Part shown: in pieces, positions 1-34,416 of the stretch
How the letters are laid out: every line of letters starts with the position of its first letter
Position numbering within the stretch: the first letter of the stretch is position 1
DNA from: a virus
Virus record (IMG/VR): IMGVR_UViG_3300005077_000565
Coordinates: 64,001-128,000 of that record
Length of the DNA stretch: 64,000 nucleotides
Reading direction: 5' to 3' (one strand)
Position numbers and translations under genes: made by a program
Notes under the pieces: generated by a model
The model's input: only the letters and a program-made list of their open reading frames with translations
The model's database searches: none
What the model was told of the DNA's origin: nothing

Positions 1-1
1 A

Positions 2-484
2 ACACTGGGACTACGTGGTAGTTCCGAATATAGAATCTATAGAAATTATCTAGAACAACGCCACAATATTTTGGAAACTGATGTTGTAATATTCTGTCAC
101 ACGCATCAGAGCAGAGTATTTCTCAAAGATTCAGACCGAACGTTATCAAGTCGACGACTTGAATCACATCCATGGTGTGATCTCTTGTTCAATGATGTGT
201 TTACTAAAAACGAACGCAAATTTATTAACGTACTTGAACAAATCTGGGACGACGATTATTTTGAGTATATGTATTCAAAAGTAGTTTCAGATTGTCAGTC
301 AGTAAAAAATAGCATACACATTACATTTTTTTCAGACATGGCTGCGAAATATAATTTTGTTGATTTTGGAGATTTTTTCCGTAGTTATCGTGGTAAAATA
401 AATCATCTAACCGATCAGGGAAATTTAGAAATCTATAAAGAGTTACAGAAAATAATTCACGGAGATATGTTACATGTATTTTGA
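2..484 (+). CDS. SGNH/GDSL-like hydrolase, 5'-partial (frame open to window edge)
   Basis: Frame upstream of track start 71 is open (TLGLRGSSEYRIY). C-terminal NHLTDQGN resembles the SGNH block V His region. Neighbours two SGNH-like genes. Confidence 0.5.
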   Translation, partial: TLGLRGSSEYRIYRNYLEQRHNILETDVVIFCHTHQSRVFLKDSDRTLSSRRLESHPWCDLLFNDVFTKNERKFINVLEQIWDDDYFEYMYSKVVSDCQSVKNSIHITFFSDMAAKYNFVDFGDFFRSYRGKINHLTDQGNLEIYKELQKIIHGDMLHVF

Positions 485-1064
485 AAATGAGTTTCAGCTA
501 GATGATTTCAAGAAAACACGTGGTCAACCAGAACTTCTGGGACTAGACGTTGCTGTTGGCTGTAGCTATACTTACGGGGATGGTGTTGATCCTGATCAGG
601 CCTGGCCGTCTCTCTTGAATACATTTAACCTAGGTCAAGGTGGATCTAGTAACGATAGCATTATGCGACGTTTAGTGCATTACATTAACAGATTTAATGA
701 TGTCAAAAATGTATATATATTATGGACACATCGACCAAGACGTGAGTATATTGATACTAATTCAAATGAATTTTGTACTTTTTATCCAAATTTAGCTGAA
801 TCACCAAGACAGATTGACACAGGTATGAAACTGGCGTTCATGGTATTACAAAATAAAAATTACGATGAATATAACATATTAAAAAATAAATTTATAGTAG
901 AAAGTATATGTAAAGTACACAATATAAATTTATTTCAGCTAGAAATAATAAACACAGATCCTTTTAAATTTGGTGTTGGTAGCGACGGATCACACCCAGA
1001 CCATCACTGGCATCGTCATGTTGCTGACATGTTTATTAATATGAAACGTGCGCATAATAATTAA
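474..1064 (+). CDS. SGNH/GDSL-family hydrolase or acyltransferase
   Basis: Motifs VAVGCSYTYG (block I Ser), NLGQGGSSN (block II), DGSHP (DxxH). Confidence 0.7.
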   Translation: MYFENEFQLDDFKKTRGQPELLGLDVAVGCSYTYGDGVDPDQAWPSLLNTFNLGQGGSSNDSIMRRLVHYINRFNDVKNVYILWTHRPRREYIDTNSNEFCTFYPNLAESPRQIDTGMKLAFMVLQNKNYDEYNILKNKFIVESICKVHNINLFQLEIINTDPFKFGVGSDGSHPDHHWHRHVADMFINMKRAHNN

Positions 1065-1078
1065 TTTTGGAGTTATTG

Positions 1079-1669
1079 ATGTTTTTTAAAGAAAAATTTA
1101 ATGAAAATAATTTATATTACCCTGTTAGATATCCTGATCGACTAGGTAGTGATTTGGCAATCGGTTGCGGGTATACATACGGTGTTGGGGTTGAAGATCA
1201 GCAAGACTGGCCGTCAATATTAGGGTTATATAATCTAGGTCAAGAAGGCGTTAGTAATGATTTCATAGTCAGATTAGCAATTCAATACATAAATCGATTC
1301 CCGAAAATTCAAAATGTATACGTGCTGTGGACCCACTACTCAAGACGAGAATATGTAGATGATTCAAAAAAAATTATACCTTATTTTCCTGAGGCAGTTA
1401 CTGACAGTCATTATAAATCATATGAGTGGCTCAACTCAATGAAAGTAATATCAACTGTTGCAAATGATCGTTATAATTATGAAAAAAATAAAGTTATGAT
1501 GGAATTGGCATGCCGGCGACACAATATACGACTGCATCAGATTTCAGTAGAAGAAACGCAGCACTGGGTCGGTCCAAGATCAAGTAACGAATTTTATCCA
1601 GATTACTCCTGGCATTTGAAAGTAGCAACCATGTTCAAAAATATATCAATTACTGGCGTACAACACTGA
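1079..1669 (+). CDS. SGNH-like paralogue with degenerate catalytic residues
   Basis: Colinear paralogue of 474..1064, but GCGYTYG (Ser to Gly) and NEFYP in place of DGSHP. ATG 1079 follows GGAG. Confidence 0.65.
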   Translation: MFFKEKFNENNLYYPVRYPDRLGSDLAIGCGYTYGVGVEDQQDWPSILGLYNLGQEGVSNDFIVRLAIQYINRFPKIQNVYVLWTHYSRREYVDDSKKIIPYFPEAVTDSHYKSYEWLNSMKVISTVANDRYNYEKNKVMMELACRRHNIRLHQISVEETQHWVGPRSSNEFYPDYSWHLKVATMFKNISITGVQH

Positions 1670-1678
1670 CACTACAGA

Positions 1679-2995
1679 ATGCACAACAACTCAATGATTA
1701 CCCAACATTTCTGCTATGCGGCATTTACGCATGCCATGGTGGACAATAATAATTCATTTAGACTTTGTTGTCTGAATGAAACTCCCATGGGGTCTTTGAA
1801 TCAGTCGACCTTTTCCGAAATCTGGCAATCGGAAAAATACCAAAAAGTCAGACAGTCTATGATAGACGGGAAACCAATCCCTGGCTGTGAAATATGTTAT
1901 CGAACTGAACAACTGGGTAGCGTGTCAGACCGACAGACCTACAATCAGCGTTATAGTGATATATTTCCTGATGTAAATGTTGCGACCGGAAACAGTGAAA
2001 ACTTTCCAGTCAGTTATGATCTAAGATCCAGTAATCTATGTAATTTAAAGTGTCTGATGTGTGGCCCGGGAAGCAGCCACTTAATTTCTCGCGAAATTTT
2101 AGAAAACCAGGATTTGTTTTCGTTAAATGCCGACAATACTGGTACAATTGTTCATGATCGCCTAGCGGCAGAACCAATGCCTTTGAAAATGTCCACTAGT
2201 TGGTTTCAGGGCCTGCAGGAAAGCATCGTGTCCACTAAACCACTTAGTCTTACACTTTTGGGTGGTGAGCCCACCGTGATCCCAGAATATTATAATTTAT
2301 TAAACAAATTAATTGATGCCAATAATACCGCGGGTTATCTGATGTTTGTCACCAATCTAACAAATTTAAATGAAAACTTTAGGCGAATTATAACTGAATT
2401 TGACAGCGTTGATGTTGTGTGCAGTCTGGATGGTTTCGGTAAAACTGTAGAGTATATAAGATACCCTTTAAATTTTGAACAATGGCGAACTAATTTTGAG
2501 CGATTAGTAGAAATAGCCGCTGAAAAAAATAAAATTAAACCCAATAGTCTACGAATTGCAATACATTCTGTAATACAGATATTAAATGTACACCGACTTC
2601 CAGATTTTATAGGGTTTATAAAACAATATGAATCTTATGATTTTGTTAGATTCAGTTTCAATAATGTTATAACTGGCTACGGCCGTGGCCCATTTGATCT
2701 AAAGTATATCGATGCCACTGAGCGTGCCGCCATTGTCTCCAGGGTTCGTGCTGTATTTTCAGAAGAATTAATAAAATCCAGCAGACTTTCCAATATCATA
2801 GATCAACTGGAATTAGACCTGCCGGTGCCATCAGAGCAAGACTGGAATAACTTAACAATATTTTTACTCAAGCGCGATATTGCTCGTGGCATATCAGTTG
2901 CCGATTACGCACCCGACGTATATAAATTAATTGCTGACCGTTATAGCAAATATCATAAAATTATGTTAAAATATAAAAAAGGTATAGATCAATGA
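1679..2995 (+). CDS. Radical SAM protein with N-terminal SPASM/twitch-like Cys domain
   Basis: CNLKCLMC, LLGGEP; N-terminal CYAAF..LCC..CEICY. Confidence 0.9.
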   Translation: MHNNSMITQHFCYAAFTHAMVDNNNSFRLCCLNETPMGSLNQSTFSEIWQSEKYQKVRQSMIDGKPIPGCEICYRTEQLGSVSDRQTYNQRYSDIFPDVNVATGNSENFPVSYDLRSSNLCNLKCLMCGPGSSHLISREILENQDLFSLNADNTGTIVHDRLAAEPMPLKMSTSWFQGLQESIVSTKPLSLTLLGGEPTVIPEYYNLLNKLIDANNTAGYLMFVTNLTNLNENFRRIITEFDSVDVVCSLDGFGKTVEYIRYPLNFEQWRTNFERLVEIAAEKNKIKPNSLRIAIHSVIQILNVHRLPDFIGFIKQYESYDFVRFSFNNVITGYGRGPFDLKYIDATERAAIVSRVRAVFSEELIKSSRLSNIIDQLELDLPVPSEQDWNNLTIFLLKRDIARGISVADYAPDVYKLIADRYSKYHKIMLKYKKGIDQ

Positions 2996-4479
2996 TTAGA
3001 TGGGGAATAACTGCGAACAGTCATGATGCCAGTGTGGCAGTTCTTGACGGTGACCGAATATTATTTGCAGCGCACAGTGAACGTTCTAGTGGGGCGAAAA
3101 ACGACCCTTTTTTAAATAAAAAAATATTATCTCAGGCACTGGAATTTGGTGAGCCTGAAGAAGTGCACTGGTATGAAACTGACTGGCTAAAACGAACACG
3201 ACAACTGTATGCCGGGCAGTGGTCCAGCGTGATAGATAACATAACCCCTGCAGAAACACTGGATGCTTTTGGTGTCAGCGCACATTTAACCCAGCATCGG
3301 CATCATGCTAGTCATGCTGCGGCCGGCTGGTATACTGCGCCGTTTCAAGAAGGTGCAATACTGGTAATTGACAGTATTGGTGAATGGGAATCACTGACAA
3401 TGTGGACTGGCCAGGGCACCAGTATGGTTAAACGATTTAGTCAGAATTACCCCGACAGTGTCGGCCTCTGGTACAGTGCCATGACACAACGTATTGGTCT
3501 AAAACCCAACGAAGAAGAATATATACTCATGGGCATGGCGGCCGCAGGCGACCCGGAACGATTTGTCACAGATATATTTGAAGACTTCTTTCATCCACTG
3601 ACGCCGGGAAGTCTAAAAATAAAATTAAAATACAACCTCCATCGCGGCTGTAGATGGTGGCGCCCTGAATTAACAGAATTTCAAGATCTTGCAGATATTG
3701 CAGCCGGAACTCAGGCAGTCTATGAAAAAATATTTGAGCATCTAGTTAAAACCACACAGGAATTGACAGGTCAGCGCAATTTAGTATTAATGGGCGGCTG
3801 TGCACTTAATTGTGTTGCCAACGGCCTAGCCTACAAATATTTTGAAAATGTCTGGATCATGCCCAATCCCGGCGACGCTGGCAGCAGTGTGGGGGCAGTG
3901 TTGAACCATATCAAAACCAAAATAGAGTATGTTACCCCCTATCTTGGCTACAGTATTGCTGGAAAGTATCCAGTTAACAGTGCATTAACGGAATTGCTTG
4001 ATACTGGTATTGTGGGCATTGCCAGCGGCGCGGCAGAATTTGGGCCCAGGGCCCTGGGCAATAGAAGTCTCATTGCCGATCCCCGCGGCCAGGAAATGAA
4101 GGATAAAGTTAATGCCATTAAGAAGCGTCAAGCCTTCCGTCCATTTGCACCAGTGATCAAACAGGAAAATCTACACCAACATTTTGAAATGCCTGCAGGA
4201 TGCAACGCCAGCCCCTACATGCAGTTCGTGGGTCGTTGCCGTCGTCCGGACCTGTACCCTGCAATAACTCACTTGGATGGCACTAGCAGGGTCCAGACTG
4301 TCACTGAACAACAACACCCTGATTTATACAGACTACTAACACTCTGGGAAGATCGTACTGGGTGCCCAATACTGCTGAATACCAGTTTAAATATCAAAGG
4401 CGAACCCATGGTTGATGACGAAGCCGACGCCAACCGCTGGGTAGAAAAATATAAAGTCAACGTAGTGACTTCAGATTAA
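2992..4479 (+). CDS. Carbamoyltransferase (NodU/CmcH/TobZ family)
   Basis: SHDASV, HHASHAA, GGCALNCVAN, EFGPRALGNRS, RPFAP, LNTSLN. Confidence 0.93.
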   Translation: MIRWGITANSHDASVAVLDGDRILFAAHSERSSGAKNDPFLNKKILSQALEFGEPEEVHWYETDWLKRTRQLYAGQWSSVIDNITPAETLDAFGVSAHLTQHRHHASHAAAGWYTAPFQEGAILVIDSIGEWESLTMWTGQGTSMVKRFSQNYPDSVGLWYSAMTQRIGLKPNEEEYILMGMAAAGDPERFVTDIFEDFFHPLTPGSLKIKLKYNLHRGCRWWRPELTEFQDLADIAAGTQAVYEKIFEHLVKTTQELTGQRNLVLMGGCALNCVANGLAYKYFENVWIMPNPGDAGSSVGAVLNHIKTKIEYVTPYLGYSIAGKYPVNSALTELLDTGIVGIASGAAEFGPRALGNRSLIADPRGQEMKDKVNAIKKRQAFRPFAPVIKQENLHQHFEMPAGCNASPYMQFVGRCRRPDLYPAITHLDGTSRVQTVTEQQHPDLYRLLTLWEDRTGCPILLNTSLNIKGEPMVDDEADANRWVEKYKVNVVTSD

Positions 4480-5666
4480 TGACAACGAATAAAAAAACTG
4501 CCAATCATGTAACTGCCAGGCCTTTTGTACAGGAAACATCATTCAAGAAGGATGACTACTGGGGTGAAGTCTGGGACCGCACCAAAAACTTTGGTGCCAA
4601 CGAGCGAGTGGCCAGCACCACCGGTAAATATTGTGCTAAACCATTTACCTGGTTTGAAATACAGATCGACGGTCGTGTGTTCATGTGCTGCCCTACCTGG
4701 CTACCTTATCCTGTGGGTAATGTATTTGAAAACACCATTTCTGAAATATGGAACAGCGAACGTGTGATTAAAATCAGAGAGTCTATCTACGATGGATCTT
4801 TTAAGTATTGTAACAAACCGCTGTGTCCTGATATACAGGCTGGGTATCTGAAAGACTTAAATGAAATACCGGCCGCTGATCGTTGGATAGTTGACCAGAC
4901 TGGGTTTCCGAAAAATATAAATTTTAGCACTGACGAGAGCTGCAATTTAAGTTGCCCCAGTTGCCGTACCAGCAAAATTCTGCATAGTTCTGGTCCTGAT
5001 TACGACCATCGTCAATTATTAGACGATAAAATTTGGTCTGAAATAATGGCAAGACCCAAGGACATAGACATTAATATACACATTACTGGCAGCGGTGACC
5101 CTTTTGGTAGTAAAATATTTCGTGAGCGCCTCCTCAGTCTAGACGCCACAGAGCGCCCAAACATGCGCTTCCATTTTAAAACCAATGGTGTAATGCTGAC
5201 GCCAAAAATCTGGGAACAATTACATCGTATACATCGAAACATAAAAAATATACACATTAGTTTTGATGCCGGCACTGAACAAACCTATAACATAACACGT
5301 CGCGGTGGTGATTGGAATACATTAATTGAAAATATGCGAGCTCTGGACCCAATAGCACGCGACAACGGTATACAATTATTCTATGATTATGTAGTTCAGG
5401 CTGCTAATGCAACTGAAATGCTGGATTTTTGTAAACTAATTAATGAAATTAGTCCAAATTATTATCTCCTACATTTTACACGTATCAGTGACTGGGGGAC
5501 CTGGCCCACACAGGAATTCGAGCGTCAGGCAGTCTGGATGGAGTCACATCCCGATCATCAGGCCTGGTTGCAGCATATTGCCAATCCAGAGTTTGATAAA
5601 TATCGCATTAACTGGGCAAATAATGCGCAGTTTAGAAAAATTGCAATAGAAAAATTCCGAGGTTAA
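4479..5666 (+). CDS. Radical SAM protein with N-terminal SPASM-like domain
   Basis: CNLSCPSC, ITGSGDPF; N-terminal YCAKPF..MCCP..YCNKPLCP. Confidence 0.88.
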   Translation: MTTNKKTANHVTARPFVQETSFKKDDYWGEVWDRTKNFGANERVASTTGKYCAKPFTWFEIQIDGRVFMCCPTWLPYPVGNVFENTISEIWNSERVIKIRESIYDGSFKYCNKPLCPDIQAGYLKDLNEIPAADRWIVDQTGFPKNINFSTDESCNLSCPSCRTSKILHSSGPDYDHRQLLDDKIWSEIMARPKDIDINIHITGSGDPFGSKIFRERLLSLDATERPNMRFHFKTNGVMLTPKIWEQLHRIHRNIKNIHISFDAGTEQTYNITRRGGDWNTLIENMRALDPIARDNGIQLFYDYVVQAANATEMLDFCKLINEISPNYYLLHFTRISDWGTWPTQEFERQAVWMESHPDHQAWLQHIANPEFDKYRINWANNAQFRKIAIEKFRG

Positions 5667-5667
5667 T

Positions 5668-6873
5668 GTGTCCGAGCAAAAACCAAAACAAAAATTAGAC
5701 CACATCACAGCAAAGCCATTTGTTGATGACAATGAAATACTGAACAGCAGATTCTGGGGTAGTGTTCATACTAGAAAACGTAATTTTAACAGTACCGAGC
5801 ATCATATATCTCCGGCTGGTAAGTATTGTGACAAGCCCTTTACCTGGCTGGAGTTTAATGGACACGGTCGAGCCTTTATGTGTTGTCCAACCTGGTTGCC
5901 CTACTCTGTTGGCGACGTTTCCGTGGATAGTATATCATCAATCTGGAACGGCGTACGTGCCAAGATGATAAGGCGTTCAATTTTTGACGGTTCCTACAAA
6001 TACTGTAATGTACCACTGTGTCCGGATATTCAATCTAATATATTACCGGAATTGTCTACTATTGATCAATCGCAACGCTGGACAGTTGACCCCACTGGTT
6101 TCCCTAAACATATTATTTTCAGTACTGATGAAAGTTGTAATCTTTCTTGTCCTAGCTGCAGGATTGGAAAAGTACTGCATGCTGATGGTCCTGAATACGA
6201 AAGGAGAAAACGTCTAGACGACAAAATCTGGGATGAAATACTGGCACAGCCTCTGGATATTGACTTGACTATACATATCACTGGCAGTGGCGATCCTTTT
6301 GGTAGCAAGGTTTTTCGAGAACGTCTACTGGGGCTAGATTTAACTGAGCGTCCAAATATAAAAATAGTTCTTAAGACCAATGGGGTGATGTTAACTCCTA
6401 AAATCTGGGGGCAACTACACCGCATACACCGAAACATAACTGCTATAAACATTAGTTTCGACGCCGCCACTGAAAAAACATACAACCTAATACGTCGCGG
6501 CGGACACTGGCCCACGTTGCTGGAAAATGTCCGGCATCTGGATCCATTGGCTAAAGAACTTGGTATTCGACTTTTCTATGATTACGTAGTACAGTTTAGC
6601 AACTCTGCGGAACTACTGCCCTTCTGTAAACTTATAGCGGAAATAAGTCCCAGCTATCAGCATGTGCAATTTACACGCATCAGTGACTGGGGCACCTGGC
6701 CCAGGCCACAGTTTGAGCACGAAGCTATCTGGATGGCCACTCACCCACATCATGAAAATTGGCTAATGCATATTTCAGATCCCGAGTTCAACAAATACCG
6801 TGTACACTGGTCTAATAATTCTCAATTCAGACGTCAGGCCATTGAAAAATATGGTCCGCGGAGCAACATATGA
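5668..6873 (+). CDS. Radical SAM protein, tandem paralogue of 4479..5666
   Basis: CNLSCPSC, ITGSGDPFGS; colinear with the upstream gene along its length. Confidence 0.88.
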   Translation: MSEQKPKQKLDHITAKPFVDDNEILNSRFWGSVHTRKRNFNSTEHHISPAGKYCDKPFTWLEFNGHGRAFMCCPTWLPYSVGDVSVDSISSIWNGVRAKMIRRSIFDGSYKYCNVPLCPDIQSNILPELSTIDQSQRWTVDPTGFPKHIIFSTDESCNLSCPSCRIGKVLHADGPEYERRKRLDDKIWDEILAQPLDIDLTIHITGSGDPFGSKVFRERLLGLDLTERPNIKIVLKTNGVMLTPKIWGQLHRIHRNITAINISFDAATEKTYNLIRRGGHWPTLLENVRHLDPLAKELGIRLFYDYVVQFSNSAELLPFCKLIAEISPSYQHVQFTRISDWGTWPRPQFEHEAIWMATHPHHENWLMHISDPEFNKYRVHWSNNSQFRRQAIEKYGPRSNI

Positions 6874-7640
6874 AAATTCAGTTACTGTCACTCCCGCGAT
6901 CTGGTAGTACCTATCTTTATGGAGTTCTAAGAAATGCAGTCGCCCCTGCGCAACCAGTGGACATGTTTAACGAACCCTTTAATTTTAATGCTAGGTATCG
7001 TCAAACTATGCCAGACGTCCGTAAAATTGAAATAATACAGCAAAAAATACAGCAATGTAAAAACACCACAGATTTGGTGATAAAAAATCACATAAATCAT
7101 TTTGATAATATTAACCAATATCATCTTAAAGATGAGTTTAACAGTATCAGCTGGGATACTATTGTACTAATACGGCGCGATCTTTTTAAAACTGCTATCA
7201 GCCTATCCACAAGTCGCCTAAATAAAGAATGGATAAAGTATCGAGAAGTACAAACTCCATTTAAAATTGATCCAGAATTTTTTATAGATCAATTACATTA
7301 TGTGGTTAGTATGATTCATGACATAACTCACAATGTGCACAGTTTTAGATATAGTCAGGTGTTGTTTTACGAAGGTCTAACTTTTAATCATGAGTCTGAC
7401 TTTAACCGAATTTCGTTTAATCCGCAATTTGACATTGATCGCAGGCGCGACCTTTTCCCCGATCACCCTATGTTTGTTGAAGAATTACACTGGGTTGACA
7501 AGGCCCCGGATAAGCAATTATTAATTGAAAATTATGGCGAATTGGAATCGTTGGCCAGGCAGACTCTAGCTAAAGTCCGTGATCGAAGATTTGCGATCAG
7601 GGGCACCAAGTTAGTCAATGTAGTTTGTAAAATGAATTGA
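6870..7640 (+). CDS. Sulfotransferase-like protein (P-loop sulfotransferase fold)
   Basis: N-terminal SLPRSGSTYL 5'-PSB loop, FNEPF, LIRRDLFKTAIS (3'-PB-like R..S), FYEGL. Confidence 0.7.
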   Translation: MKIQLLSLPRSGSTYLYGVLRNAVAPAQPVDMFNEPFNFNARYRQTMPDVRKIEIIQQKIQQCKNTTDLVIKNHINHFDNINQYHLKDEFNSISWDTIVLIRRDLFKTAISLSTSRLNKEWIKYREVQTPFKIDPEFFIDQLHYVVSMIHDITHNVHSFRYSQVLFYEGLTFNHESDFNRISFNPQFDIDRRRDLFPDHPMFVEELHWVDKAPDKQLLIENYGELESLARQTLAKVRDRRFAIRGTKLVNVVCKMN

Positions 7641-7674: not shown

Positions 7675-8097
7675 ATGAAAATTCTTATTTTTGGATTACC
7701 CGGCAGCGGCAAGAGCACACTGGCAAAACCTTTTTCAGAACTAATTGGTGGAGTCTGGCTGAATGCCGATCAGGTTCGTGAAGAATACAACGACTGGGAT
7801 TTTACACCCGAGGGGCGTATTCGACAGGCACAACGTATGAGATATCTTGCCGACGGTGTCGTGAAAGCAGGAAAGATTGCAGTGGCAGATTTCGTTTGCC
7901 CTACAGAGAAAGCTCGTCTGGAGTTTGCACCTGACTACACCGTCTGGATGGACACCATCAAGTCTGGTCGTTTTGAAGATACCAATAAAATTTTTGAAAT
8001 CCCGGCCAACTACGACTACCATGTCGCCAATTGGTTTGACGATACACACGAGCAGCTAGCCAAAGTAGTGGCTGCCTATATGCGTCGTGGGGGTTAA
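7675..8097 (+). CDS. cysC: Adenylyl-sulfate (APS) kinase-like protein
   Basis: GLPGSGKSTLA P-loop, LNADQVR, DFTPEGRIRQ, FVCP. Confidence 0.75.
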   Translation: MKILIFGLPGSGKSTLAKPFSELIGGVWLNADQVREEYNDWDFTPEGRIRQAQRMRYLADGVVKAGKIAVADFVCPTEKARLEFAPDYTVWMDTIKSGRFEDTNKIFEIPANYDYHVANWFDDTHEQLAKVVAAYMRRGG

Positions 8098-9532: not shown

Positions 9533-9533
9533 T

Positions 9534-20673: not shown

Positions 20674-20700
20674 AATAAAAGGGGCGTAGCCCCTTTTATT
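20674..20700. terminator. Bidirectional intrinsic terminator
   Basis: AATAAAAGGGGC-GTA-GCCCCTTTTATT perfect inverted repeat between convergent genes. Confidence 0.85.
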
Positions 20701-23522: not shown

Positions 23523-23525
23523 AAA

Positions 23526-26012: not shown

Positions 26013-26021
26013 CGTATATCC

Positions 26022-27136: not shown

Positions 27137-27160
27137 GATATGATATTATTGGTATAACCC

Positions 27161-27168
27161 TATTTATA
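27161..27168 (-). promoter_or_regulatory. T4-type late promoter box TATAAATA
   Basis: Exact TATAAATA on the minus strand, 24 nt upstream of ATG 27136, heading the 27136-to-20699 gene run. Confidence 0.55.
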
Positions 27169-27225
27169 GAGTATTTACTATTTTACTTTACGTCATCAAC
27201 TATGTCAATAAAATAAATAATTTTG

Positions 27226-27735
27226 ATGAACATTGATTCTGGAAAACGATATGCATTGACTGGACACACTGGGGGTATTGGTGCCCATCTATTCCAGCAT
27301 CTGCCAGCTGGCTCACTGGGATTCAGTAGATCCCTGGGTTATGATATAAATCGTCGCGCTGATCGTGATCGTATCATTGCTGAGTCTTCGGAAGTTGATA
27401 TTTTTATAAACAACGCATCTGATGGTTTTGGTCAAGTACAGTTGTTTGTTGAACTACTTCAGAACTGGCGTGATCAGGACAAAACGATAATAAATGTCGG
27501 TAGTCGCGTTGCCGAAATTATATTACCTGAACATCGTCTGGAACTAATGAAATACCAATCTGAAAAACTAATACTACGTGAAATGTCACTGCGTGTACCC
27601 AGTGGTATTCGGTGCCGGGTAAATTATCGATGGTTTGGTTATGTAGGCACTGAACGAATACTAAAAAAATATCCGCACTTTACTCCAGATAACTACATAA
27701 CAGTAGAGCAGGCCTGCGAAATAATACTATCATGA
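27226..27735 (+). CDS. Short SDR-like oxidoreductase
   Basis: ALTGHTGGIG, FINNA, IINVGS, YQSEK (YxxxK). Confidence 0.7.
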   Translation: MNIDSGKRYALTGHTGGIGAHLFQHLPAGSLGFSRSLGYDINRRADRDRIIAESSEVDIFINNASDGFGQVQLFVELLQNWRDQDKTIINVGSRVAEIILPEHRLELMKYQSEKLILREMSLRVPSGIRCRVNYRWFGYVGTERILKKYPHFTPDNYITVEQACEIILS

Positions 27736-28325
27736 AATATTTTAAAAAATTAGACCTTCCAATATATCAGAATGTGTTGGGTGAACTAGAGCAATTGTTA
27801 AACTCTGGAAAAATAAATTGGGGGCGACAAAATCAAATTTGTCTAAATACCACAACAGATTTTCCAGACAGTTTTCTATTGGGCGCCGGTAGTCTGGAAT
27901 TTGACTGGTCCAAGGTCAATAATCAGACGGCACAGAGTGGTGTGGTAAAGCAATCGGTACCGCTCAAAGATGTTATATTAAACGAATCTGATTTCACTGA
28001 ATTGTGCCCGCAATTCGAGGGCACTGTTTTTGAAAAAATATATCATGATCTCAAGTCTAGATACCATCTTGGTAGGATCAGGATCATTAAATCAGAGCCC
28101 AAATCCTGCATGAGCTGGCATTATGATCGTACTCCTAGAATACATCTTCCCATCAAGACACAGGAAGGTTGTTTCATGGTCATCAATGATGAAGTTGCCT
28201 TCCTGGAAGCCAACACCTGGTGGGGTACTAACACTGTACTAAAGCACACTGCTTTTAACGGGTCACGGGCTAGTAGGATACACCTAGTGGCTGTAATATT
28301 AGACTGTGAATATGATAACTTCTGA
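27732..28325 (+). CDS. AspH-like 2OG-Fe(II) oxygenase
   Basis: SWHYD..RIHLPIKT..KHTAFNG..RIHLV. Confidence 0.8.
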   Translation: MKYFKKLDLPIYQNVLGELEQLLNSGKINWGRQNQICLNTTTDFPDSFLLGAGSLEFDWSKVNNQTAQSGVVKQSVPLKDVILNESDFTELCPQFEGTVFEKIYHDLKSRYHLGRIRIIKSEPKSCMSWHYDRTPRIHLPIKTQEGCFMVINDEVAFLEANTWWGTNTVLKHTAFNGSRASRIHLVAVILDCEYDNF

Positions 28326-29010
28326 ATTAATACACGAACTTGACCTAGACCTTGACGCTTTTGAGTTCGATCCGGCCGCATTGTCAGTTCCAGAAAAGTC
28401 TAGAAGAACACTGCGCGGCGTTTCATTTTTAAGCGATACTGGTGAATCGACGTCGGGATTTAATTATACGCTGTCTATGTTCAAAGAAAATGAACAGGGC
28501 CAACGATGTTTTGATGTCGGTTATCTGAAGCAACATCAGATTAGGTCACCGAGAGCACATCGAACACCCACTGAATTGTATCATCTAGTAAAGCACAATT
28601 TTGACAAAATAGCAGCTCTGGGTATAGAACTATTCAGAGCTAGACTTAGTGTGATAGGACCCGGCCAGTCGATTCCGCGACATTTGGACTCAACTTCAGA
28701 AGGCGACTATTGTCTAAAGCTACACATACCATTGCGCACAAATCCCGATGCCTGGTTTATGTTTGACGAACATCAGTTTCATCTCAGAGAGAATCGTGCC
28801 TACATTGTCAATGTAGCGCCAGCACACTGGTTTGAAAATCGTGGCACTGTCGCCAGGTACCATATATTAGCTGATTGTATTGTAACAAATAAAAATCTAC
28901 CGTTTTATTGTGAACATTACAACCAACTAATAGAGTACTATGATGACTGGGATCGTCTAGTATTGTCAGATTCCGATCAAACTGAGTTTATTCAGAGGCT
29001 GGTACCTTGA
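28312..29010 (+). CDS. AspH-like 2OG-Fe(II) oxygenase
   Basis: IPRHLD..LHIPLRTN..AHWFENRG..RYHI. Confidence 0.8.
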   Translation: MITSELIHELDLDLDAFEFDPAALSVPEKSRRTLRGVSFLSDTGESTSGFNYTLSMFKENEQGQRCFDVGYLKQHQIRSPRAHRTPTELYHLVKHNFDKIAALGIELFRARLSVIGPGQSIPRHLDSTSEGDYCLKLHIPLRTNPDAWFMFDEHQFHLRENRAYIVNVAPAHWFENRGTVARYHILADCIVTNKNLPFYCEHYNQLIEYYDDWDRLVLSDSDQTEFIQRLVP

Positions 29011-29455
29011 GTGGGTCACCGACATTCTCAACAGCAATACCGAATACTGGTTTGAGTTCCTGAATAATGCGCTGTGGTTGATCAACCACCGACTGAATAA
29101 CAGCCGCTGCCTGTTCTGTAGTGAGTTCGGCAAACTCGTATGAAGCATTCAGGCCCACTGATTCAAAAGCAGCCAGATAATCATCTCTTTTAACTTCGGC
29201 AACAAACGCATCATGTGTTTCCGCGGAATCCCAGATATTGATCAGTTCTAGTTTGTTGTCAGCAACAATCACTGTTTTAGATCTGAACATGAGTCGATCT
29301 TTGTATTTCCTATAAGCCAGGTTATAGAGATTTTTAGAATCCTCATACAGCACAGGCTCCAGCATATTTTGGATTCTGTATTCTTCTTTGGTGAGATAAT
29401 TTGCAGCCCAGTCTGAAGTTGTGGTATGGACTGCTGACAGTTTTGACATAAACAT
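28988..29455 (-). CDS. Hypothetical protein
   Basis: 155-aa ORF with AAGGAG RBS 9 nt upstream. Confidence 0.7.
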   Translation of the reverse strand: MFMSKLSAVHTTTSDWAANYLTKEEYRIQNMLEPVLYEDSKNLYNLAYRKYKDRLMFRSKTVIVADNKLELINIWDSAETHDAFVAEVKRDDYLAAFESVGLNASYEFAELTTEQAAAVIQSVVDQPQRIIQELKPVFGIAVENVGDPLKVPASE

Positions 29456-29469
29456 TTATGTTTGCTCCT

Positions 29470-30009
29470 TTAAATTTTGTTGCCGTGTTTGAATATGTCA
29501 AACACCATAAACACGAAATCTTCATGACTATGATTCTTATATTCATGCGTCATGTACATGTTGAAATCCAGCAGGCAGTTTCCGAGTGTTGATGCATCAA
29601 AGGCACCATTGTCAATGACACATTCAACGCCTGCGGGTATATTTAAGTAAATTTGATAACGATGGCGTATTTTATCAGAAAATCCCAGTTGTTGGTCCTG
29701 GTGTGCATCAATACCACCCCCGGATGGTATACGGTGCCAGTAGGCCCGGCCATAGTCTAGTCCACCAGCGAATTTTTCAATCACAGCCCGACTCACCGGC
29801 ATCTGATCACTGCGATCAAAAGTAATATTGCATTCGCGGTCTATATTGCGTAGCCAGACAGTTTTTCCTGATCGTAGAGCCCCAGTACGTTCATATTCAC
29901 CAGTGAAGTGCGGTCGCCACCAGTTGTCTGGTACTGACATAATTTCATCAGTGATGGATTGCACTTCCTGATCGGAAAATTTATAAACTATTGTTGATGG
30001 GTATTCCAT
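29470..30009 (-). CDS. AspH-like 2OG-Fe(II) oxygenase
   Basis: IDAHQD..RYQIYL..THEYKN. Confidence 0.7.
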   Translation of the reverse strand: MEYPSTIVYKFSDQEVQSITDEIMSVPDNWWRPHFTGEYERTGALRSGKTVWLRNIDRECNITFDRSDQMPVSRAVIEKFAGGLDYGRAYWHRIPSGGGIDAHQDQQLGFSDKIRHRYQIYLNIPAGVECVIDNGAFDASTLGNCLLDFNMYMTHEYKNHSHEDFVFMVFDIFKHGNKI

Positions 30010-30011
30010 GG

Positions 30012-30677
30012 TTAAGCACGCAGACTTTTCGCAATTTCTGGATCCAGATCGTCGAAATGAAATCCAAAAATGGCCACCATGCGTTCCTGATCATCATGGT
30101 TGACCACACGATGACTCCATCCAGTGTTTATAAAATACATTTCACCGGGCTGCATTATCAGTGAATGCTCATCGGTTTTAGTCTTGAATTCAAATACCGA
30201 CCGAGTCGGTGTTAGACAAATTTGTGCTCGGCAGATCACACTGGGGTCGGTGTCAATATGCCAGTTGAGCTCATGATGGCCTTTCATCACTGAAATTCTA
30301 AATCTGTAGACATGCCGAAATATTTTAGCCAGCGTGGGTAAATTTTTAACTAGATCAGCGTCAGCCCATTCCGTGTAAAGGTATTCATCAACATCAGAAC
30401 CATGTACTTCTGGATCTCTGCGTTGTAGCAGAATTTGACGATAATTTTCATTGGCATTGAATACTTCTAGGTAGTGGCAGTGTTTGCTGATATTATATGC
30501 ATCAGACCCAAGATCATTACCAGTGTTGTTTTTACCCAGAGACACTAGATAATCTAACTCGTCTGCAGTGACAGTTGCCAGTTGCTTGTAGACTGCAAGC
30601 TCACGTCGTGATGGCCCAGTACCTTTAACACGCATTTTTTTTGTCTGCTCAATCAAACACTGTTCATTGTTTTCCAT
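30012..30677 (-). CDS. AspH-like 2OG-Fe(II) oxygenase
   Basis: LNWHID..FINTGWSHRVVN..ER. Confidence 0.8.
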   Translation of the reverse strand: MENNEQCLIEQTKKMRVKGTGPSRRELAVYKQLATVTADELDYLVSLGKNNTGNDLGSDAYNISKHCHYLEVFNANENYRQILLQRRDPEVHGSDVDEYLYTEWADADLVKNLPTLAKIFRHVYRFRISVMKGHHELNWHIDTDPSVICRAQICLTPTRSVFEFKTKTDEHSLIMQPGEMYFINTGWSHRVVNHDDQERMVAIFGFHFDDLDPEIAKSLRA

Positions 30678-31224
30678 ATCGTTTCTTCCATTCTTCTATA
30701 CTAATACTATTTAACCTAAGTGACCGTCCAGTGTAGCATACATTCTGCCAGCAATCTAGATGATCTCGCTGGCAGGTCTTTATCATATGAGGATGCACAT
30801 GCCAGTCTAACCCAGTGGCCAACTCCATTTTATTTCTAAAATTAACCATGGATTGTCTTCGACGTACATTTTCCATGGAAACAAACAGCGTGTGATATTC
30901 TGTATAATCCTGAAGTTGCCGCTGTACTAATCGCATACTCGGGCTGTAAAAATCATCGTTTTTTGGTAGTGTAGCGCGACGATATTCGGGAAATATAAAT
31001 GTCCTTGTCAGTACACGGTAACAGCCGGGATAAAATTCCTGGACTGTGGCAAATGCTGCCAGTATATCATCGTCCATTAAAAAATACCAGTTTTTATAAG
31101 ATCGATAGTTTTCCAGCAGTATTGGAAACCATCGTGCATTTCGATCAGTGTTGTTCTCCGCCAGGTCAGCCAGCACTGTTTCAAATTTTTTGTCACCAAA
31201 TTCTTCTAGAGTTATAACCTGCAT
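30664..31224 (-). CDS. Hypothetical protein, possibly GNAT-fold
   Basis: AAFATV..RVLTRTFIFPEYR resembles the GNAT beta3-beta4 region. Start taken at MQVITL. Confidence 0.45.
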   Translation of the reverse strand: MQVITLEEFGDKKFETVLADLAENNTDRNARWFPILLENYRSYKNWYFLMDDDILAAFATVQEFYPGCYRVLTRTFIFPEYRRATLPKNDDFYSPSMRLVQRQLQDYTEYHTLFVSMENVRRRQSMVNFRNKMELATGLDWHVHPHMIKTCQRDHLDCWQNVCYTGRSLRLNSISIEEWKKRYGKQ

Positions 31225-31225
31225 G

Positions 31226-31888
31226 TTATTTTTCCAGTAGATGGTTTTCAACCCACTCGTCTCGAAGCACTGGACGTGTAACATACAGTGCTTGATCTAA
31301 CAGTAGACGATCAGTGTATTTTTTATCCTGCAAATTTCCGTGCCAGGGACTGCCCACGCATATAGTTATTTTTTCAATATCGCTGAGTTCTAAATGGTGA
31401 ACTTGCCCTCCATCCAGCACATAACATCTATGTTCTCTGCTGACTGGGTGATTCTTTAGTTCAGAGTCGACGAAGCAGAGTTTTTCTATTTCTCCCTGGA
31501 GTACAAACCGCCATTTATGTTGTATAGTGCCAACTTCCGATGGAGCGCAATCAATATGCAATGGTAACTTGTTGCCTGCAGGAGTTCGTAGTATAGTGAC
31601 TCTGCCCAGTGGTTCCATGAATGGAATAATCTGGTCTAGAACAAATTGTCTAAGTGTCGGACACTGGTCAGCCACTTCTGAAAAATCAAAAGAATCCTTG
31701 ACTGCTAGATTGATCTGGCCCAATCGCCCGCCGGGATTGAAAAACGAAAGCATGTAGCAGTTTCTAAAAGAATTAAAGTGCCAACGATCCGAATCCAGCG
31801 ACAGTAGTTCATCAAGCATGGCCTGTACCTGAGATTCAGTATAGTCTATCTGAAATGGGCAGTGGGCGAAGGAATAGGGGTCACGCAT
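31226..31888 (-). CDS. 2OG-Fe(II)/AspH-like oxygenase
   Basis: LPLHIDC..LDGGQVHH. Confidence 0.7.
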   Translation of the reverse strand: MRDPYSFAHCPFQIDYTESQVQAMLDELLSLDSDRWHFNSFRNCYMLSFFNPGGRLGQINLAVKDSFDFSEVADQCPTLRQFVLDQIIPFMEPLGRVTILRTPAGNKLPLHIDCAPSEVGTIQHKWRFVLQGEIEKLCFVDSELKNHPVSREHRCYVLDGGQVHHLELSDIEKITICVGSPWHGNLQDKKYTDRLLLDQALYVTRPVLRDEWVENHLLEK

Positions 31889-32603
31889 TGTCAGTTTTGA
31901 TTAACTTAATAAACCAAGCTCCGAGATCAAAATGATACCAGCGACGTCCTATGCGCCAATTTTTGCCGTCCTCATGATGAAACTTATGATACCCTTCACC
32001 AGCAGTCAGTAAATTTGCCAGAATACTGTTGGAGGCCGATCCACCTCGATGCGTCCAGGCATTGATCAGGCCATATCCGTGAAATGCAAATACCATGGGC
32101 ATAGCCATGCCAAACAGCAAAAACATTGGGTCAATAATCAACATGGCCAGTGCTACAGCTACCATTAATTTGAAATAGTTTCTATAGAAGAATACCAGTG
32201 ATGGACGATTGCTGAGATTTTTAAGAAACTTACGATCTATCTCCACTGAATAACCCCAGAAATTGGTGTATACTGTAAAAAATCCCTTGAATTTTGGTGA
32301 GTGTGGGTCTCTGTCTGTGTCGGAATATGCATGATGCATACGATGTGAACTAGCCCAGGTAATGGCTGGTCCAGCATTGGCAAAAATCCCCAGAAACTGT
32401 GCGTAATACTCATACCAACGACCCGTGGAGAATGCATTATGTGAAAAATATCTGTGATAACCGCTGGATATAGAAGTGGTAGCAATCACCTGCCACCATA
32501 AAAATGCCAGCACCCAGTGCCACCATTGACCGTAGATCACTGCTGGTATAATGGATATATGTGCAAGTGTGTTCACTGCAACTAGTTTTGTGGTGGCTTT
32601 CAT
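31881..32603 (-). CDS. Membrane fatty-acid (delta-9-type) desaturase
   Basis: Three His boxes: GYHRYFSH, HRMHH..DPHSP, GEGYHKFHH. Confidence 0.9.
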   Translation of the reverse strand: MKATTKLVAVNTLAHISIIPAVIYGQWWHWVLAFLWWQVIATTSISSGYHRYFSHNAFSTGRWYEYYAQFLGIFANAGPAITWASSHRMHHAYSDTDRDPHSPKFKGFFTVYTNFWGYSVEIDRKFLKNLSNRPSLVFFYRNYFKLMVAVALAMLIIDPMFLLFGMAMPMVFAFHGYGLINAWTHRGGSASNSILANLLTAGEGYHKFHHEDGKNWRIGRRWYHFDLGAWFIKLIKTDNA

Positions 32604-32624
32604 AGTTTTAACACTGTATAGAAA

Positions 32625-32636
32625 TATTTATAAATA
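32625..32636. promoter_or_regulatory. Palindromic double late-promoter box TATTTATAAATA
   Basis: Contains TATAAATA on both strands, between the divergent desaturase and rSAM genes. Confidence 0.55.
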
Positions 32637-32710
32637 TCGCAGATATCAGTTATTTGACTTTTTGTAAAAGTAATATATATTATTGTATACTAAAACACCA
32701 GAAATACAAC

Positions 32711-33865
32711 ATGAGCGATTTAAAATGGAGTGAATACGATTTCACGCAGATACCCTTCGACGATTTAGTCAGGGTAGGCCAGCGAAACATGCTGTACCGT
32801 GATCTGTTCACTGTCAGTTGGCTACTGGGTAGATTCTGTAATTACCGTTGCAGTTATTGCTGGCCCTATGCTCGTAGCGACTCCAAGGACCATAGACCCA
32901 CTGAACTATGCCTGCTCACTATCGATGAAATAAAACGACAGGCACGCGACAACGGCTTCAACAGTTTTCATTTTAGCCTCAGCGGCGGTGAGCCAACGTT
33001 TCATCCCGGCTATCTGGATATTATGAAACATCTAGCAGATGATGTCCCTACCACCAACTACACCAGCGTGCACATGACATCAAATTGTTCTAGAAGCATG
33101 CGGTGGTTTGAGACCTATGTGGATCACGCTAGTAAATTTCATCGTGCCAGCATAACAGCCAGTCTGCACACTGAACACGTCAACACTCCGGAAAAGATGC
33201 AGGTGTTCGCTGATAAGTTGATCTTCTGTCAGGAACATGATGTACAGGTAACCATTAATCAGGTCATGGTTCCCGAGTGGTTTGAACGTGACTGGTCTAA
33301 TGCCATGTTCTTCCATGAACAAGGTATCAACGTTACACTTAAACCACAGAGTGACCCCACTGCCAGTCGCGTAGTATCGGGTTATACACCGGAAATGTTG
33401 GAAAAATTACACAACGGCATGCCGCAACGATCATTCACCAGTGTAAAAAACAAGTATGTTACTAGACCACAGCCTACATTTGTCAAATCCAGTGACCCGC
33501 TCTACTGGGAAGATCATAGCAATGTACCGCAGGATTTTCAGATAGAGTTTGTCGACAAACAGGGGAAATACTGGTACATGGATCAGGCTGAACGTTTCAA
33601 TGCCTTTAACTTCAATCGTTTTACCGGCTGGGAATGTTCCAGTGGATACCGCAGTATTATCATACGCGAGCCTGATGGTAGTATTAAACGTAGTTATAGT
33701 TGTCACGATCAGCCCATCGGAAACATTGAAACTGGATTTAAGTTATTTGACAGTCCACGCCCCTGTGTAAGTCCCAGTTGTGTATCCAGTGCCGACAGTA
33801 AAATACCTAAACGTGCGCCGGGCACTAAACTGCCGCTGTGGCCCGGCGACACAACATTTTCATGA
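32711..33865 (+). CDS. Radical SAM protein with C-terminal Cys cluster
   Basis: CNYRCSYC, LSGGEP, WECSSG, YSC, PCVSPSCVS. Confidence 0.9.
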   Translation: MSDLKWSEYDFTQIPFDDLVRVGQRNMLYRDLFTVSWLLGRFCNYRCSYCWPYARSDSKDHRPTELCLLTIDEIKRQARDNGFNSFHFSLSGGEPTFHPGYLDIMKHLADDVPTTNYTSVHMTSNCSRSMRWFETYVDHASKFHRASITASLHTEHVNTPEKMQVFADKLIFCQEHDVQVTINQVMVPEWFERDWSNAMFFHEQGINVTLKPQSDPTASRVVSGYTPEMLEKLHNGMPQRSFTSVKNKYVTRPQPTFVKSSDPLYWEDHSNVPQDFQIEFVDKQGKYWYMDQAERFNAFNFNRFTGWECSSGYRSIIIREPDGSIKRSYSCHDQPIGNIETGFKLFDSPRPCVSPSCVSSADSKIPKRAPGTKLPLWPGDTTFS

Positions 33866-34416
33866 AGATACTAATAGCAGGTAATCCCAGATATGGCCTA
33901 GCTCAGGCACTGTCTAAGAGTCTAGCAGAACATGAGCTGGAATTTGTAAGTAGAAGCACACACGGTCTGGATTTAACCAAGGCAGAAAATCAGCAACGGT
34001 TTGCTGAACTCAGTGAATCTTACGATATAGTTATTCTATGCAGTGCTCTCTGGAAGTTTAATCAAACCCTGTTGCTGGAAGCCACATACAAACGGCTCAG
34101 AACTCTCGACAAGCGCACGAAAATTATCTGCATAGGCAGTACTACTGATAGAGTTAAAAAAGCGACAGACTGGCTGTATAACGCTGAAAAGAAAGCACTG
34201 CGTGATTTTTGTAACAGTCTTACATTGACAGGCGTCTGGAATACGGGTCCACTGGTTACTCTGATTAGTTTCGGGACTCTGAGTAATATGCAACACAAGC
34301 ACCCCGATCGAAAAACTATGTCAATAGAAAAGGCTGCTGATTACGTTAACTGGGTAATACAACAGCCATGTGAACTACATGTCAATGAAATCAGCATTGA
34401 CCCTGTACAGATTTAA
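33862..34416 (+). CDS. Short SDR-like oxidoreductase
   Basis: LIAGNPRYGLA, ICIGS, YNAEK (YxxxK), VNEISIDP. Confidence 0.7.
   Translation: MKILIAGNPRYGLAQALSKSLAEHELEFVSRSTHGLDLTKAENQQRFAELSESYDIVILCSALWKFNQTLLLEATYKRLRTLDKRTKIICIGSTTDRVKKATDWLYNAEKKALRDFCNSLTLTGVWNTGPLVTLISFGTLSNMQHKHPDRKTMSIEKAADYVNWVIQQPCELHVNEISIDPVQI

Follow-up and report, generated by a model that had tools for sequence, protein, structure and literature searches.

What does a bacteriophage make with a row of radical S-adenosylmethionine (rSAM) genes that is accompanied by no scaffold synthase? The question is raised by a stretch of 64,000 nucleotides (the window) that comprises bases 64001-128000 of the linear, 168,158-bp IMG/VR virus record IMGVR_UViG_3300005077_000565, a genome that is 47% complete according to CheckV. 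The left part of the window belongs to an rSAM-rich island of tailoring enzymes, about 49 kb in size (genome 49.5-98.4 kb), which forms the variable tailoring region located after the tail-fibre genes of an uncultured marine jumbo myophage. The first-pass annotation had given this island an extent of 34 kb, which proved too small; the island begins 14.5 kb before window base 1, and this added part contains a further two rSAM genes. The function tentatively preferred here, with confidence that stops somewhat short of even, is the multi-step radical tailoring of a sugar or glycan.

The whole record encodes 14 rSAM genes with 15 domains among approximately 210 open reading frames (ORFs), far above chance; they account for about 7% of the ORFs in this incomplete genome, and 11 of the 14 lie inside the island. 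Nine rSAM genes with ten CxxxCxxC domains, nearly all with extra Cys clusters, had been predicted at positions 1-34416, and Pfam Radical_SAM matches together with Cys patterns confirm this count, with extra Cys clusters present in all nine. The rSAM genes of the island, referred to below by their first coordinate, are the following.

Genome 56360-59627, upstream part of the island: two extra rSAM genes
1679-2995, plus strand: accessory N_Twi_rSAM paralog (NF033640, 259 bits; SPASM at residues 12-73, Radical_SAM at 118-278)
4479-5666 and 5668-6873, plus strand: tandem pair of divergent N-twitch rSAM genes, SPASM before Radical_SAM
11452-12528, plus strand: core rSAM with a C-terminal twitch (C-x18-CC), from a Radical_SAM match and the Cys pattern
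12509-13789, minus strand: N_Twi_rSAM paralog on the opposite strand (NF033640, 243 bits)
13816-14940, plus strand: second C-terminal-twitch rSAM, 29% identical to 11452-12528 and 45-51% identical to its counterparts in related contigs
14912-16324, plus strand: core N_Twi_rSAM, the best conserved member (NF033640, 424 bits)
17072-19177, plus strand: N_Twi_rSAM (NF033640, 406 bits) fused in frame to a viperin/MoaA-like rSAM core (second Radical_SAM at residues 485-608)
19167-19622, plus strand: Cys-rich twitch ORF of the second 17072 core, overlapping 17072-19177 by 11 nt
32654-33865, plus strand: core viperin/MoaA-like rSAM with a C-terminal four-Cys cluster and invariant Cys

Grouping by all-against-all BLAST and NCBIfam profiles gives three types. 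In ten paralogs the auxiliary Cys (twitch) module stands ahead of the rSAM core, with SPASM preceding Radical_SAM in Pfam. Eight of these ten have the same order as NF033640 (N_Twi_rSAM), an N-terminal four-Cys twitch followed by the CxxxCxxC core, and score 243-424 bits against its 170-bit cut-off, whereas 4479 and 5668 share the layout but stay under the cut-off at 62-81 bits. A 14-sequence alignment of N-twitch proteins shows C13, C32, C94 and C97 to be invariant ahead of the core residues C150, C154 and C157, and these four N-terminal Cys suggest an auxiliary cluster that is fully ligated. The second type, 11452 and 13816, departs from NF033640 in that a Cys module of this kind (C-x18-CC) stands at the C-terminus, and both permutations coexist in the island. 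The third type consists of 32654 and the C-terminal half of 17072, each associated with a C-terminal four-Cys cluster. The boundary between the second 17072 core and its twitch ORF falls in an A-rich tract (19160-19180), and the corresponding region is a single 425-aa ORF in related contig L109; the split may be natural or may reflect a frameshift or sequencing error. Tandem duplication appears as recent in 4479/5668 (63% identical), in the upstream pair (45% by BLAST) and in the 45116/46462 pair outside the island (45%), while the remaining paralogs are old, at 20-30% identity. With the solved twitch and SPASM enzymes (BtrN, anSME, CteB, SkfB, MoaA, viperin, DesII and BlsE) the proteins share a partial TIM barrel and an auxiliary [4Fe-4S] site, but their auxiliary domain can be N-terminal, the structural similarity is low (TM about 0.3) and the family models stay far under their cut-offs. 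A PDB profile search with the 32654 alignment returned generic rSAM N-terminal matches only.

The island is a three-part mosaic. Module A reaches from genome 52.9 kb to window 8.3 kb, module B occupies 9.1-19.6 kb and 32.6-34.4 kb of the window, and a 13-kb accessory block (19691-32603) separates the two parts of module B; the gene layout indicates that this block was inserted into module B in the studied phage, and the 32654/33838 pair directly adjoins other core genes in related contig L015. In addition to five to six rSAM genes, module B contains the following.

9116-9532, plus strand: small HxGH nucleotidyltransferase-like protein (CTP_transf_like, 21.9 bits versus a 21-bit cut-off)
9456-10244, plus strand: core GT-A-fold transferase with a DxD motif, predicted from the fold of its AlphaFold model to depend on NDP-sugars
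10195-11235, plus strand: class-I-methyltransferase-like protein (Methyltransf_31/PCMT, an Atlas lead only)
11232-11459, plus strand: conserved 75-aa protein
16317-17111, plus strand: QueC-like PP-loop ATP pyrophosphatase (SGxxDS motif, C-terminal C...CxxCxxC)
33838-34416, plus strand: short partner of the 32654 rSAM, a weak short-chain dehydrogenase/reductase (SDR) call

The conserved core comprises two GT-A-fold transferases, the methyltransferase-like protein, the QueC-like PP-loop enzyme and about five rSAM proteins. Of the predicted glycosyltransferase (GT) and methyltransferase, the former was confirmed by fold and the latter is still a lead. The AlphaFold model of 9456-10244 (pLDDT 88) gave 45 Foldseek matches at E<=0.001, every listed one a GT-A protein; B4GALNT1 aligns best (VIA Z 11.3, rmsd 2.8 Å over 139 residues), followed by WrtF and SpsA, and in the DxD motif D83 is at least 90% conserved and D85 invariant. 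The model thereby assigns the protein to the GT-A/NDP-sugar-transferase fold, with sugar transfer itself being predicted. The PP-loop protein belongs to a large viral QueC-like clade in the Atlas and is without a Pfam QueC match of its own. When the GT-A-like and PP-loop alignments were used as profiles against the PDB, nothing matched significantly. The nucleotidyltransferase-like protein has weak NMNAT-type NCBIfam matches and is 73% identical to homologs in L018-20. In relatives, several of the core genes are fused: two GT-A domains and the methyltransferase-like protein form one 1090-aa ORF in L111, double GT-A fusions of 494-528 aa occur, and an N-twitch rSAM is joined to the QueC-like enzyme in one 827-aa ORF in L109. 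These Rosetta-stone links tie the core functions together.

Among viruses, the core recurs in at least 533 confirmed IMG/VR stretches found by an alignment-based scan; a scan with the single protein 4479-5666 found no match. Occurrence was counted in the best 80 viral loci out of these. At least three rSAM genes are present in 78 of the 80 (median 6, maximum 12), and homologs were found for 14912 in 80, 11452 in 73, 32654 in 65, the methyltransferase-like 10195 in 61, the GT-A transferase 9456 in 38 and the QueC-like 16317 in 30. The core genes are thus present in most loci, the carbamoyltransferase, kinase, oxygenase and transporter genes in few. Orthologs of 14912 on viral contigs of 211-328 kb in IMG/VR are up to 81% identical, and phage orthologs of 11452 and 32654 are 62-72% and 75-78% identical. 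For the opposite-strand gene 12509-13789, 219 metagenomic homologs were found in a set of 5.8 billion proteins, many on contigs of 50-350 kb that carry tandem rSAM genes together with a carbamoyltransferase, an APS-kinase-like gene and UDP-glucose dehydrogenase. Longer fused relatives of 14912-16324 were sought in the same set and none scored, which is weak evidence. Further neighbours of the core are most often members of two AspH-like families (25 and 17 viral loci), UDP-glucose dehydrogenase, GT2, ThyX, a B12-rSAM or a second QueC-like family; ThyA or ThyX is a frequent neighbour, and the recurrent sugar enzymes are UDP-glucose dehydrogenase, GT2, O-carbamoyltransferase and epimerase-like SDRs.

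Cellular relatives were sought in GTDB with one genome per species. Matches of 14912 are overwhelmingly in Bdellovibrionota metagenome-assembled genomes, at 51-60% identity and in some cases on contigs of 0.9-3 Mb; the few matches elsewhere are in Haliscomenobacter, WWE3, Paenibacillus and Verrucomicrobiota. Some short contigs binned as cellular are probably mis-binned phage, for example L081, which begins with a fibre gene. Shared between phage and Bdellovibrionota are 14912 (58% identical), 11452 (44%, range 41-45%), 32654 (60-65%, lowest 59%), the N-terminal half of 17072 (48%), its C-terminal half with 19167, 9456 (36-40%) and 10195. With 14912 at 81% in phages and 58% in Bdellovibrionota, and 32654 at 78% and 65%, the core orthologs are old and individually conserved. 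Five Bdellovibrionota genomes of 2.3-4 Mb have 7-14 N_Twi_rSAM copies each, in several clusters, and none of 14 control genomes has a protein that passes the NF033640 cut-off. Because only 12 of 61 genomes in an even sample of Bdellovibrionota are positive, the trait is patchy and accessory in this group. In a Halobacteriovoraceae genome, genes for four GT2 glycosyltransferases, an amine-oxidase-type flavoprotein and a QueC-like protein are interspersed among the core genes. Two C-terminal transmembrane (TM) helices are present in one of the GT2 proteins and a nearby protein has eight TM segments, a layout that would resemble polyprenyl-phosphate sugar systems. A protease of the M16 insulinase-like kind lies roughly 6 kb from one Bdellovibrionota cluster and is considered unrelated. 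A literature search combining Bdellovibrio, radical SAM and glycosyltransferase found nothing relevant.

The sugar or glycan reading is preferred because of the GT-A core, the fusions, the GT2 neighbourhood in the predators and the sugar-nucleotide enzymes, because O-carbamoyl, sulfo and amide-forming enzymes accompany the core behind fibre genes, and because no precursor-like peptide or repeat substrate was found. Some twitch rSAM enzymes, BtrN for example, work on carbohydrate-type substrates, and the uronamides of O-antigens come from AsnB-like amidotransferases. In the mechanism that gene content, architecture, conservation, fusions and genomic neighbourhoods suggest, soluble cytoplasmic enzymes would assemble a nucleotide- or lipid-linked sugar or short glycan by means of the GT-A transferases. 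Hydrogen abstraction by the twitch rSAM enzymes would then lead to oxidation, epimerisation, dehydration or C-C modification at sugar carbons, the ATP-dependent ligases of QueC-like and AsnB-like type would turn carboxylates into amides, and the remaining enzymes would add carbamoyl, sulfo, methyl and acyl groups and hydroxyls. The product would decorate a surface structure with a role in attack on other cells, most likely the phage fibres or virion and otherwise the envelope of the infected cell. The first-pass annotation had likewise proposed decoration of a macromolecule; with GT-A transferases in the core, and the core placed among GT2 genes in Bdellovibrionota, a sugar-based structure is favoured, and nothing shows a protein or peptide substrate. 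A small product derived from a nucleotide-sugar is a possible alternative to macromolecule decoration. As a speculation, phages, predatory bacteria and a Candidate Phyla Radiation (CPR) genome all attach to other cells, and the product could decorate the attacker's surface or the envelope of the prey. It is conceivable but unlikely that the N-twitch rSAM/GT-A/QueC-like module constitutes an undescribed, multi-step radical glycan-editing pathway of jumbo and T4-like phages, predatory Bdellovibrionota and some CPR that decorates phage fibres or virions and tunes adsorption or evades host defences.

Several observations weigh against the sugar or glycan reading. NF033640 is a catalogued family, and we know of no member with tested activity. 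The N-twitch structure model of 14912 (pLDDT 75) has CteB, SkfB and anSME as its nearest solved folds, and these peptide- or protein-modifying enzymes rank ahead of the sugar and nucleotide enzymes viperin, BlsE, DesII and MoaA, which are only slightly lower. The nucleotidyltransferases IspD and MobA match the 9456 fold at Z of about 10, near the top Z, and GT-A enzymes can glycosylate peptides, SunS and ThuS being among the fold matches. Two N-twitch paralogs sit in a 7-deazaguanine DNA-modification block, and the sulfotransferase, SGNH, SDR and rubrerythrin annotations are weak. Finally, no flippase, polymerase, initiating GT or exporter was found in the island by a TM scan, so an envelope glycan would need host machinery; the multi-TM proteins are limited to TctA, the TctB-like protein and the desaturase, and Pfam detects no Wzx, Wzy or ABC genes.

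The structural neighbours bear directly on an alternative in which the rSAM enzymes and AspH-like hydroxylases modify virion proteins (fibres or a 3501-aa giant protein) or a peptide akin to the post-translationally modified peptides of ribosomal origin (RiPPs), which the GT-A enzymes then glycosylate. The ranking of CteB, SkfB and anSME suggests such chemistry, however at a TM of about 0.3 the match is generic for the rSAM fold, and in these models a sugar substrate would be indistinguishable from a peptide by fold. Secondary NCBIfam matches are also to peptide maturases, at 18-48 bits against cut-offs of 265-720 for the characterised models (SkfB, PapB, RumMC, CefB, HxsB, MftC and PqqE). Enzymes of the AspH type classically hydroxylate proteins, the 9456 fold matches include peptide S-glycosyltransferases and the PBCV-1 capsid GT, and the island abuts fibre genes, a (YGG)8 repeat being present in one fibre-like protein. 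However, this repeat is unique to the studied phage, and no precursor, repeat or tail motif recurs within 10 kb of the arrays in approximately 160 loci; when tandem-repeat, Ser-run and CHxS-type proteins were sought near the arrays, only the (YGG)8 protein turned up. A substrate encoded outside these neighbourhoods is conceivable. The 75-aa ORF of module B is evenly conserved, contains no Cys and lacks a leader/core pattern, and neither a RiPP recognition element (RRE)/PqqD domain nor a leader peptidase or exporter was found by Pfam. RiPP/HXS-type multi-rSAM systems likewise have several rSAM genes in a row without a scaffold synthase, but no precursor or repeat protein was found here, and their HxsB, PapB and SkfB models score 20-48 bits versus 300-720. 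Protein or peptide modification is therefore regarded as unlikely, and the phage post-translational modification system put forward from the window goes beyond the evidence. Its companion statement, that nonribosomal peptide synthetase (NRPS), polyketide synthase (PKS) and precursor peptide are lacking, agrees with Pfam, which detects no NRPS or PKS domains in island proteins, and with the locus survey.

A second alternative, in which viperin/MoaA/QueE-like cores and the QueC-like enzyme act on a purine, deazapurine or NTP and the GTs glycosylate a soluble nucleoside or a modified base such as the 7-deazaguanine of phage DNA, arises from the third rSAM type and from a block outside the island, on the minus strand at 43337-54955, in which 7-deazaguanine genes (QueE-like, FolE, QueD and DpdA-like) are interleaved with a GT-B, a nucleotidyltransferase-cupin protein and two N_Twi_rSAM genes.

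43337-44248, minus strand: QueE-like rSAM (Pfam)
45116-46468 and 46462-47850, minus strand: N_Twi_rSAM paralogs (NF033640, 285 and 290 bits)

The stretch 45116-47850 is the sole place where N-twitch enzymes touch a DNA-modification pathway. The best secondary NCBIfam matches of 32654 and the C-terminal half of 17072 are to viperin, MoaA and QueE models, but all are far under the cut-offs (Viperin_w_prok 61.6 and 39.7 versus 180 bits, MoaA 49.8 and 35 versus 284, QueE_Clost 26 and 20 versus 260). The PP-loop enzyme belongs to a QueC-like viral clade and ThyA or ThyX often adjoins the core; however, the ThyA at 34413-35345 passes the thymidylate synthase equivalog cut-off and is canonical rather than a pyrimidine hydroxymethylase. 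In the 80 viral loci, homologs of DpdA, FolE, QueD and QueE are absent up to 10 kb from the core, and the neighbours of the core in Bdellovibrionota are GT2 genes. A nucleotide-derived small molecule or DNA-base hypermodification is accordingly held to be distinctly unlikely.

The accessory block contains most of the remaining chemistry of the island.

From 19691, plus strand: TctC-like binding protein (Pfam E 4e-13)
From 20699, minus strand: DctP binding protein of TRAP type (Pfam E 3e-35)
From 21649, minus strand: TctA permease (Pfam E 1e-126)
Within the transporter cassette 19691-23522, minus strand: TctB-like protein with five TM segments (TM scan)
23526-26474, minus strand: accessory cassette of an unassigned ORF and the next three genes (Pfam)
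23989-25284, minus strand: Asn-synthetase-like amidoligase (Pfam-confirmed)
25284-26012, minus strand: rubrerythrin-like protein (Pfam E 4e-4, weak)
26022-26474, minus strand: GNAT acetyltransferase (Pfam-confirmed)
26471, minus strand: AspH-like oxygenase under the Pfam cut-off
27223, plus strand: weak SDR-like gene in the oxygenase stretch 26471-31888, which also holds unassigned ORFs
27732 and 28306, plus strand, and 29470 and 30012, minus strand: AspH-like Fe(II)/2-oxoglutarate oxygenases over the Pfam Asp_Arg_Hydrox cut-off
31226, minus strand: AspH-like oxygenase by HxD..H motif only
31881-32603, minus strand: membrane fatty-acid-desaturase-like protein with three His boxes and two TM segments (NCBIfam DesA-family E 6e-15, well below its cut-off)

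Of the six HxD..H oxygenases called from the sequence, four are thus supported over the Pfam cut-off, one falls under it and one has the motif only. The carbamoyltransferase, Asn-synthetase-like ligase, GNAT, desaturase and transporters were recovered by Pfam and the NCBIfam DesA family. The calls of a ferritin-like protein, three SGNH-like and two SDR-like proteins and a second GNAT have visible matches or motifs that are weak, at or under cut-off or motif only. All island enzymes are soluble by TM scan with the exception of the transporter proteins (TctA, TctB-like and TctC-like) and the desaturase, the TctC-like protein having one N-terminal hydrophobic segment. In addition to a complete TTT-type uptake set (TctC-like, TctA and TctB-like), the phage encodes a DctP binding protein of TRAP type; the closest TctA homologs share only about 50% identity, and the named ones are from Alpha- and Betaproteobacteria. 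Homologs of the unassigned ORF, the AsnB-like enzyme and the GNAT match Bdellovibrionales contig L066, which also has core rSAM genes, and of these three matches the AsnB-like ORF alone appears in a non-overlapping ORF map of that contig.

The oxygenases and desaturase also suggest a third alternative, remodelling of lipid or lipid A in the infected-cell membrane by LpxO-like hydroxylases, acyl-transfer enzymes, the desaturase and lipid-directed rSAM chemistry. LpxO, which hydroxylates lipid A, is a member of the AspH family, the island encodes DesA-family desaturase, GNAT and SGNH-like genes, and a desaturase and two oxygenases accompany the core in cellular contig L025. However, the desaturase, oxygenase and GNAT genes belong to the accessory block and lie outside the conserved core, which consists of GT-A, rSAM and PP-loop genes, and acyl carrier, acyl-ACP and Lpx-type genes were not found by Pfam. 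This alternative appears very improbable.

For the sugar or glycan reading, module A would supply the carbamoyl and sulfo functions. It includes two GT8-like proteins, a GT-A fusion protein and N-twitch rSAM genes, and in the window the following genes, except that the last lies between modules A and B.

2-484 (beginning upstream of the window), 474-1064 and 1067-1669, plus strand: three SGNH-like paralog-type ORFs (GDS/GxSxxxG N-terminal motif only)
2992-4479, plus strand: O-carbamoyltransferase of NodU/CmcH type (Carbam_trans_N E 1e-38, Carbam_trans_C E 7e-52)
6870-7640, plus strand: sulfotransferase-like gene (Sulfotransfer_3 E 0.0025, under cut-off)
7675-8097, plus strand: P-loop kinase resembling adenosine 5'-phosphosulfate (APS) kinase (32.8 versus a 21.1-bit Pfam cut-off; partial, profile positions 5-90 of 152)
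8098-8292, plus strand: 64-aa ORF directly after the APS-kinase-like ORF
8365-9129, plus strand: homing-endonuclease-like gene (NUMOD3 match) inserted between the kinase-like and nucleotidyltransferase-like genes

Homologs of the carbamoyltransferase that adjoin rSAM arrays in L018-20, L080, L110 and L127 share 48-55% identity with it. Haliscomenobacter contig L080 has a GT8-like pair, a GT-A protein, N-twitch genes and the carbamoyltransferase (48%) in the order of module A. The proposed pairing of a sulfotransferase with an APS kinase stands in part: the kinase passes its Pfam cut-off as a partial match, with the NCBIfam APS-kinase models far under theirs, and the sulfotransferase stays under cut-off. 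The kinase-like ORF and the 64-aa ORF that follows may be a truncated or split gene. Pairs of SGNH-like ORFs are 39-42% identical by BLAST, and in Pfam these ORFs have no match or a weak one to GT4; a further two paralogs are found immediately before the window start.

The borders of the island place it on phage DNA. Along the record, gp5-like and gp6-like baseplate genes are followed by the gene for the 3501-aa giant protein, a fibre gene with an intramolecular-chaperone (IMC) domain and the island, so the anticipated linkage to tail-fibre genes is direct. Between this fibre gene and window base 1 are unassigned and GT8-like ORFs, the GT-A fusion protein (595 aa) and the two extra rSAM genes. 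PHROGs searches with ten upstream ORFs gave tail-fibre or structural matches that were weak and for one ORF only. The (YGG)8 protein has 428 aa (genome 51185-52471, upstream of the window), and its repeat is perfect and near the C-terminus, with no counterpart in the approximately 160 related loci. To the right of the island are the following genes.

34413-35345, minus strand: canonical thymidylate synthase ThyA, the right island border (NF002497, 351.7 bits versus a 327-bit cut-off)
37311-39990, minus strand: DUF2201 metallopeptidase/VWA-like protein and MoxR-type AAA ATPase (a CobT/CobS-like pair)
55347-57989, minus strand: family-B DNA polymerase (PolB) of the carrier

The DUF2201/AAA pair adjoins the island and is kept together with it in contigs L112 and L121. 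A chimeric assembly was ruled out because several independent loci, at 45-58% identity, repeat the linkage of the rSAM module with ThyA and the DUF2201/AAA pair. A host-derived or chimeric segment, the circumstance named as speaking against the first-pass annotation, was thus not what was found: the island is real phage DNA whose core is conserved in related large phages. G+C content is even over the island and its flanks (0.40-0.44), and no tRNA genes were found. The best cultured matches of PolB are Sinorhizobium phage Phosso (49%) and GAP32/Rak2-type phages (about 44%). Because these nearest relatives are jumbo myophages of 340-470 kb, the carrier is assigned to the uncultured marine jumbo myophages, with a T4-type replication core and a genome of probably about 350 kb. 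A megablast search with 44 kb of the window against cultured phages gave zero matches, and near-identical DNA was not found. A search for sequencing runs listed none, and none of RNA.

Comparable regions have been described. A 183-kb T4-like marine genome contains 12 rSAM genes (Nishimura et al. 2017, PMC5332604), and pelagimyophages and cyanomyophages have a 'host recognition cluster' behind the giant VrlC protein, with GTs, lipopolysaccharide (LPS) and transport genes and rSAM cassettes, and with AspH-like genes in the group's core gene set (Zaragoza-Solas et al. 2020, PMC7029224). The island resembles this cluster as a hypervariable block after a giant protein and tail-fibre genes with GTs and rSAM cassettes, but the studied phage is not a pelagimyophage and its PolB is nearest to jumbo phages. 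These reports make the finding of an rSAM-rich island in a T4-like marine phage less novel; the function of the rSAM genes is not given in them, and the core module, the N-twitch family and the Bdellovibrionota link are not described. Cyanophage P-SSM2 carries 24 LPS genes proposed to alter the cell surface (PMC1079782). Such clusters are similar in that a lytic T4-type marine phage has tens of sugar-handling genes, however LPS and O-antigen clusters consist of ordinary epimerases, transferases and synthases, whereas the studied island is dominated by rSAM genes and has no flippase, polymerase or initiating GT.

The N-twitch family is present in hundreds of uncultured phages and in up to 14 copies per Bdellovibrionota genome. 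The product of the conserved core, if worked out, would represent new radical enzymology and would account for a large and recurrent portion of the variable DNA that follows the tail-fibre genes in abundant aquatic phages, which bears on phage-host surface chemistry, host recognition and superinfection exclusion. The core could be tested in culturable predators and in those cultured Vibrio phages that have small rSAM clusters. In the cultured 255-kb Vibrio phage K566, three to four rSAM genes at 161.5-168 kb of its record are about 27% identical to the N-twitch family; this cluster, located among hypothetical genes, is a possible experimental entry point.

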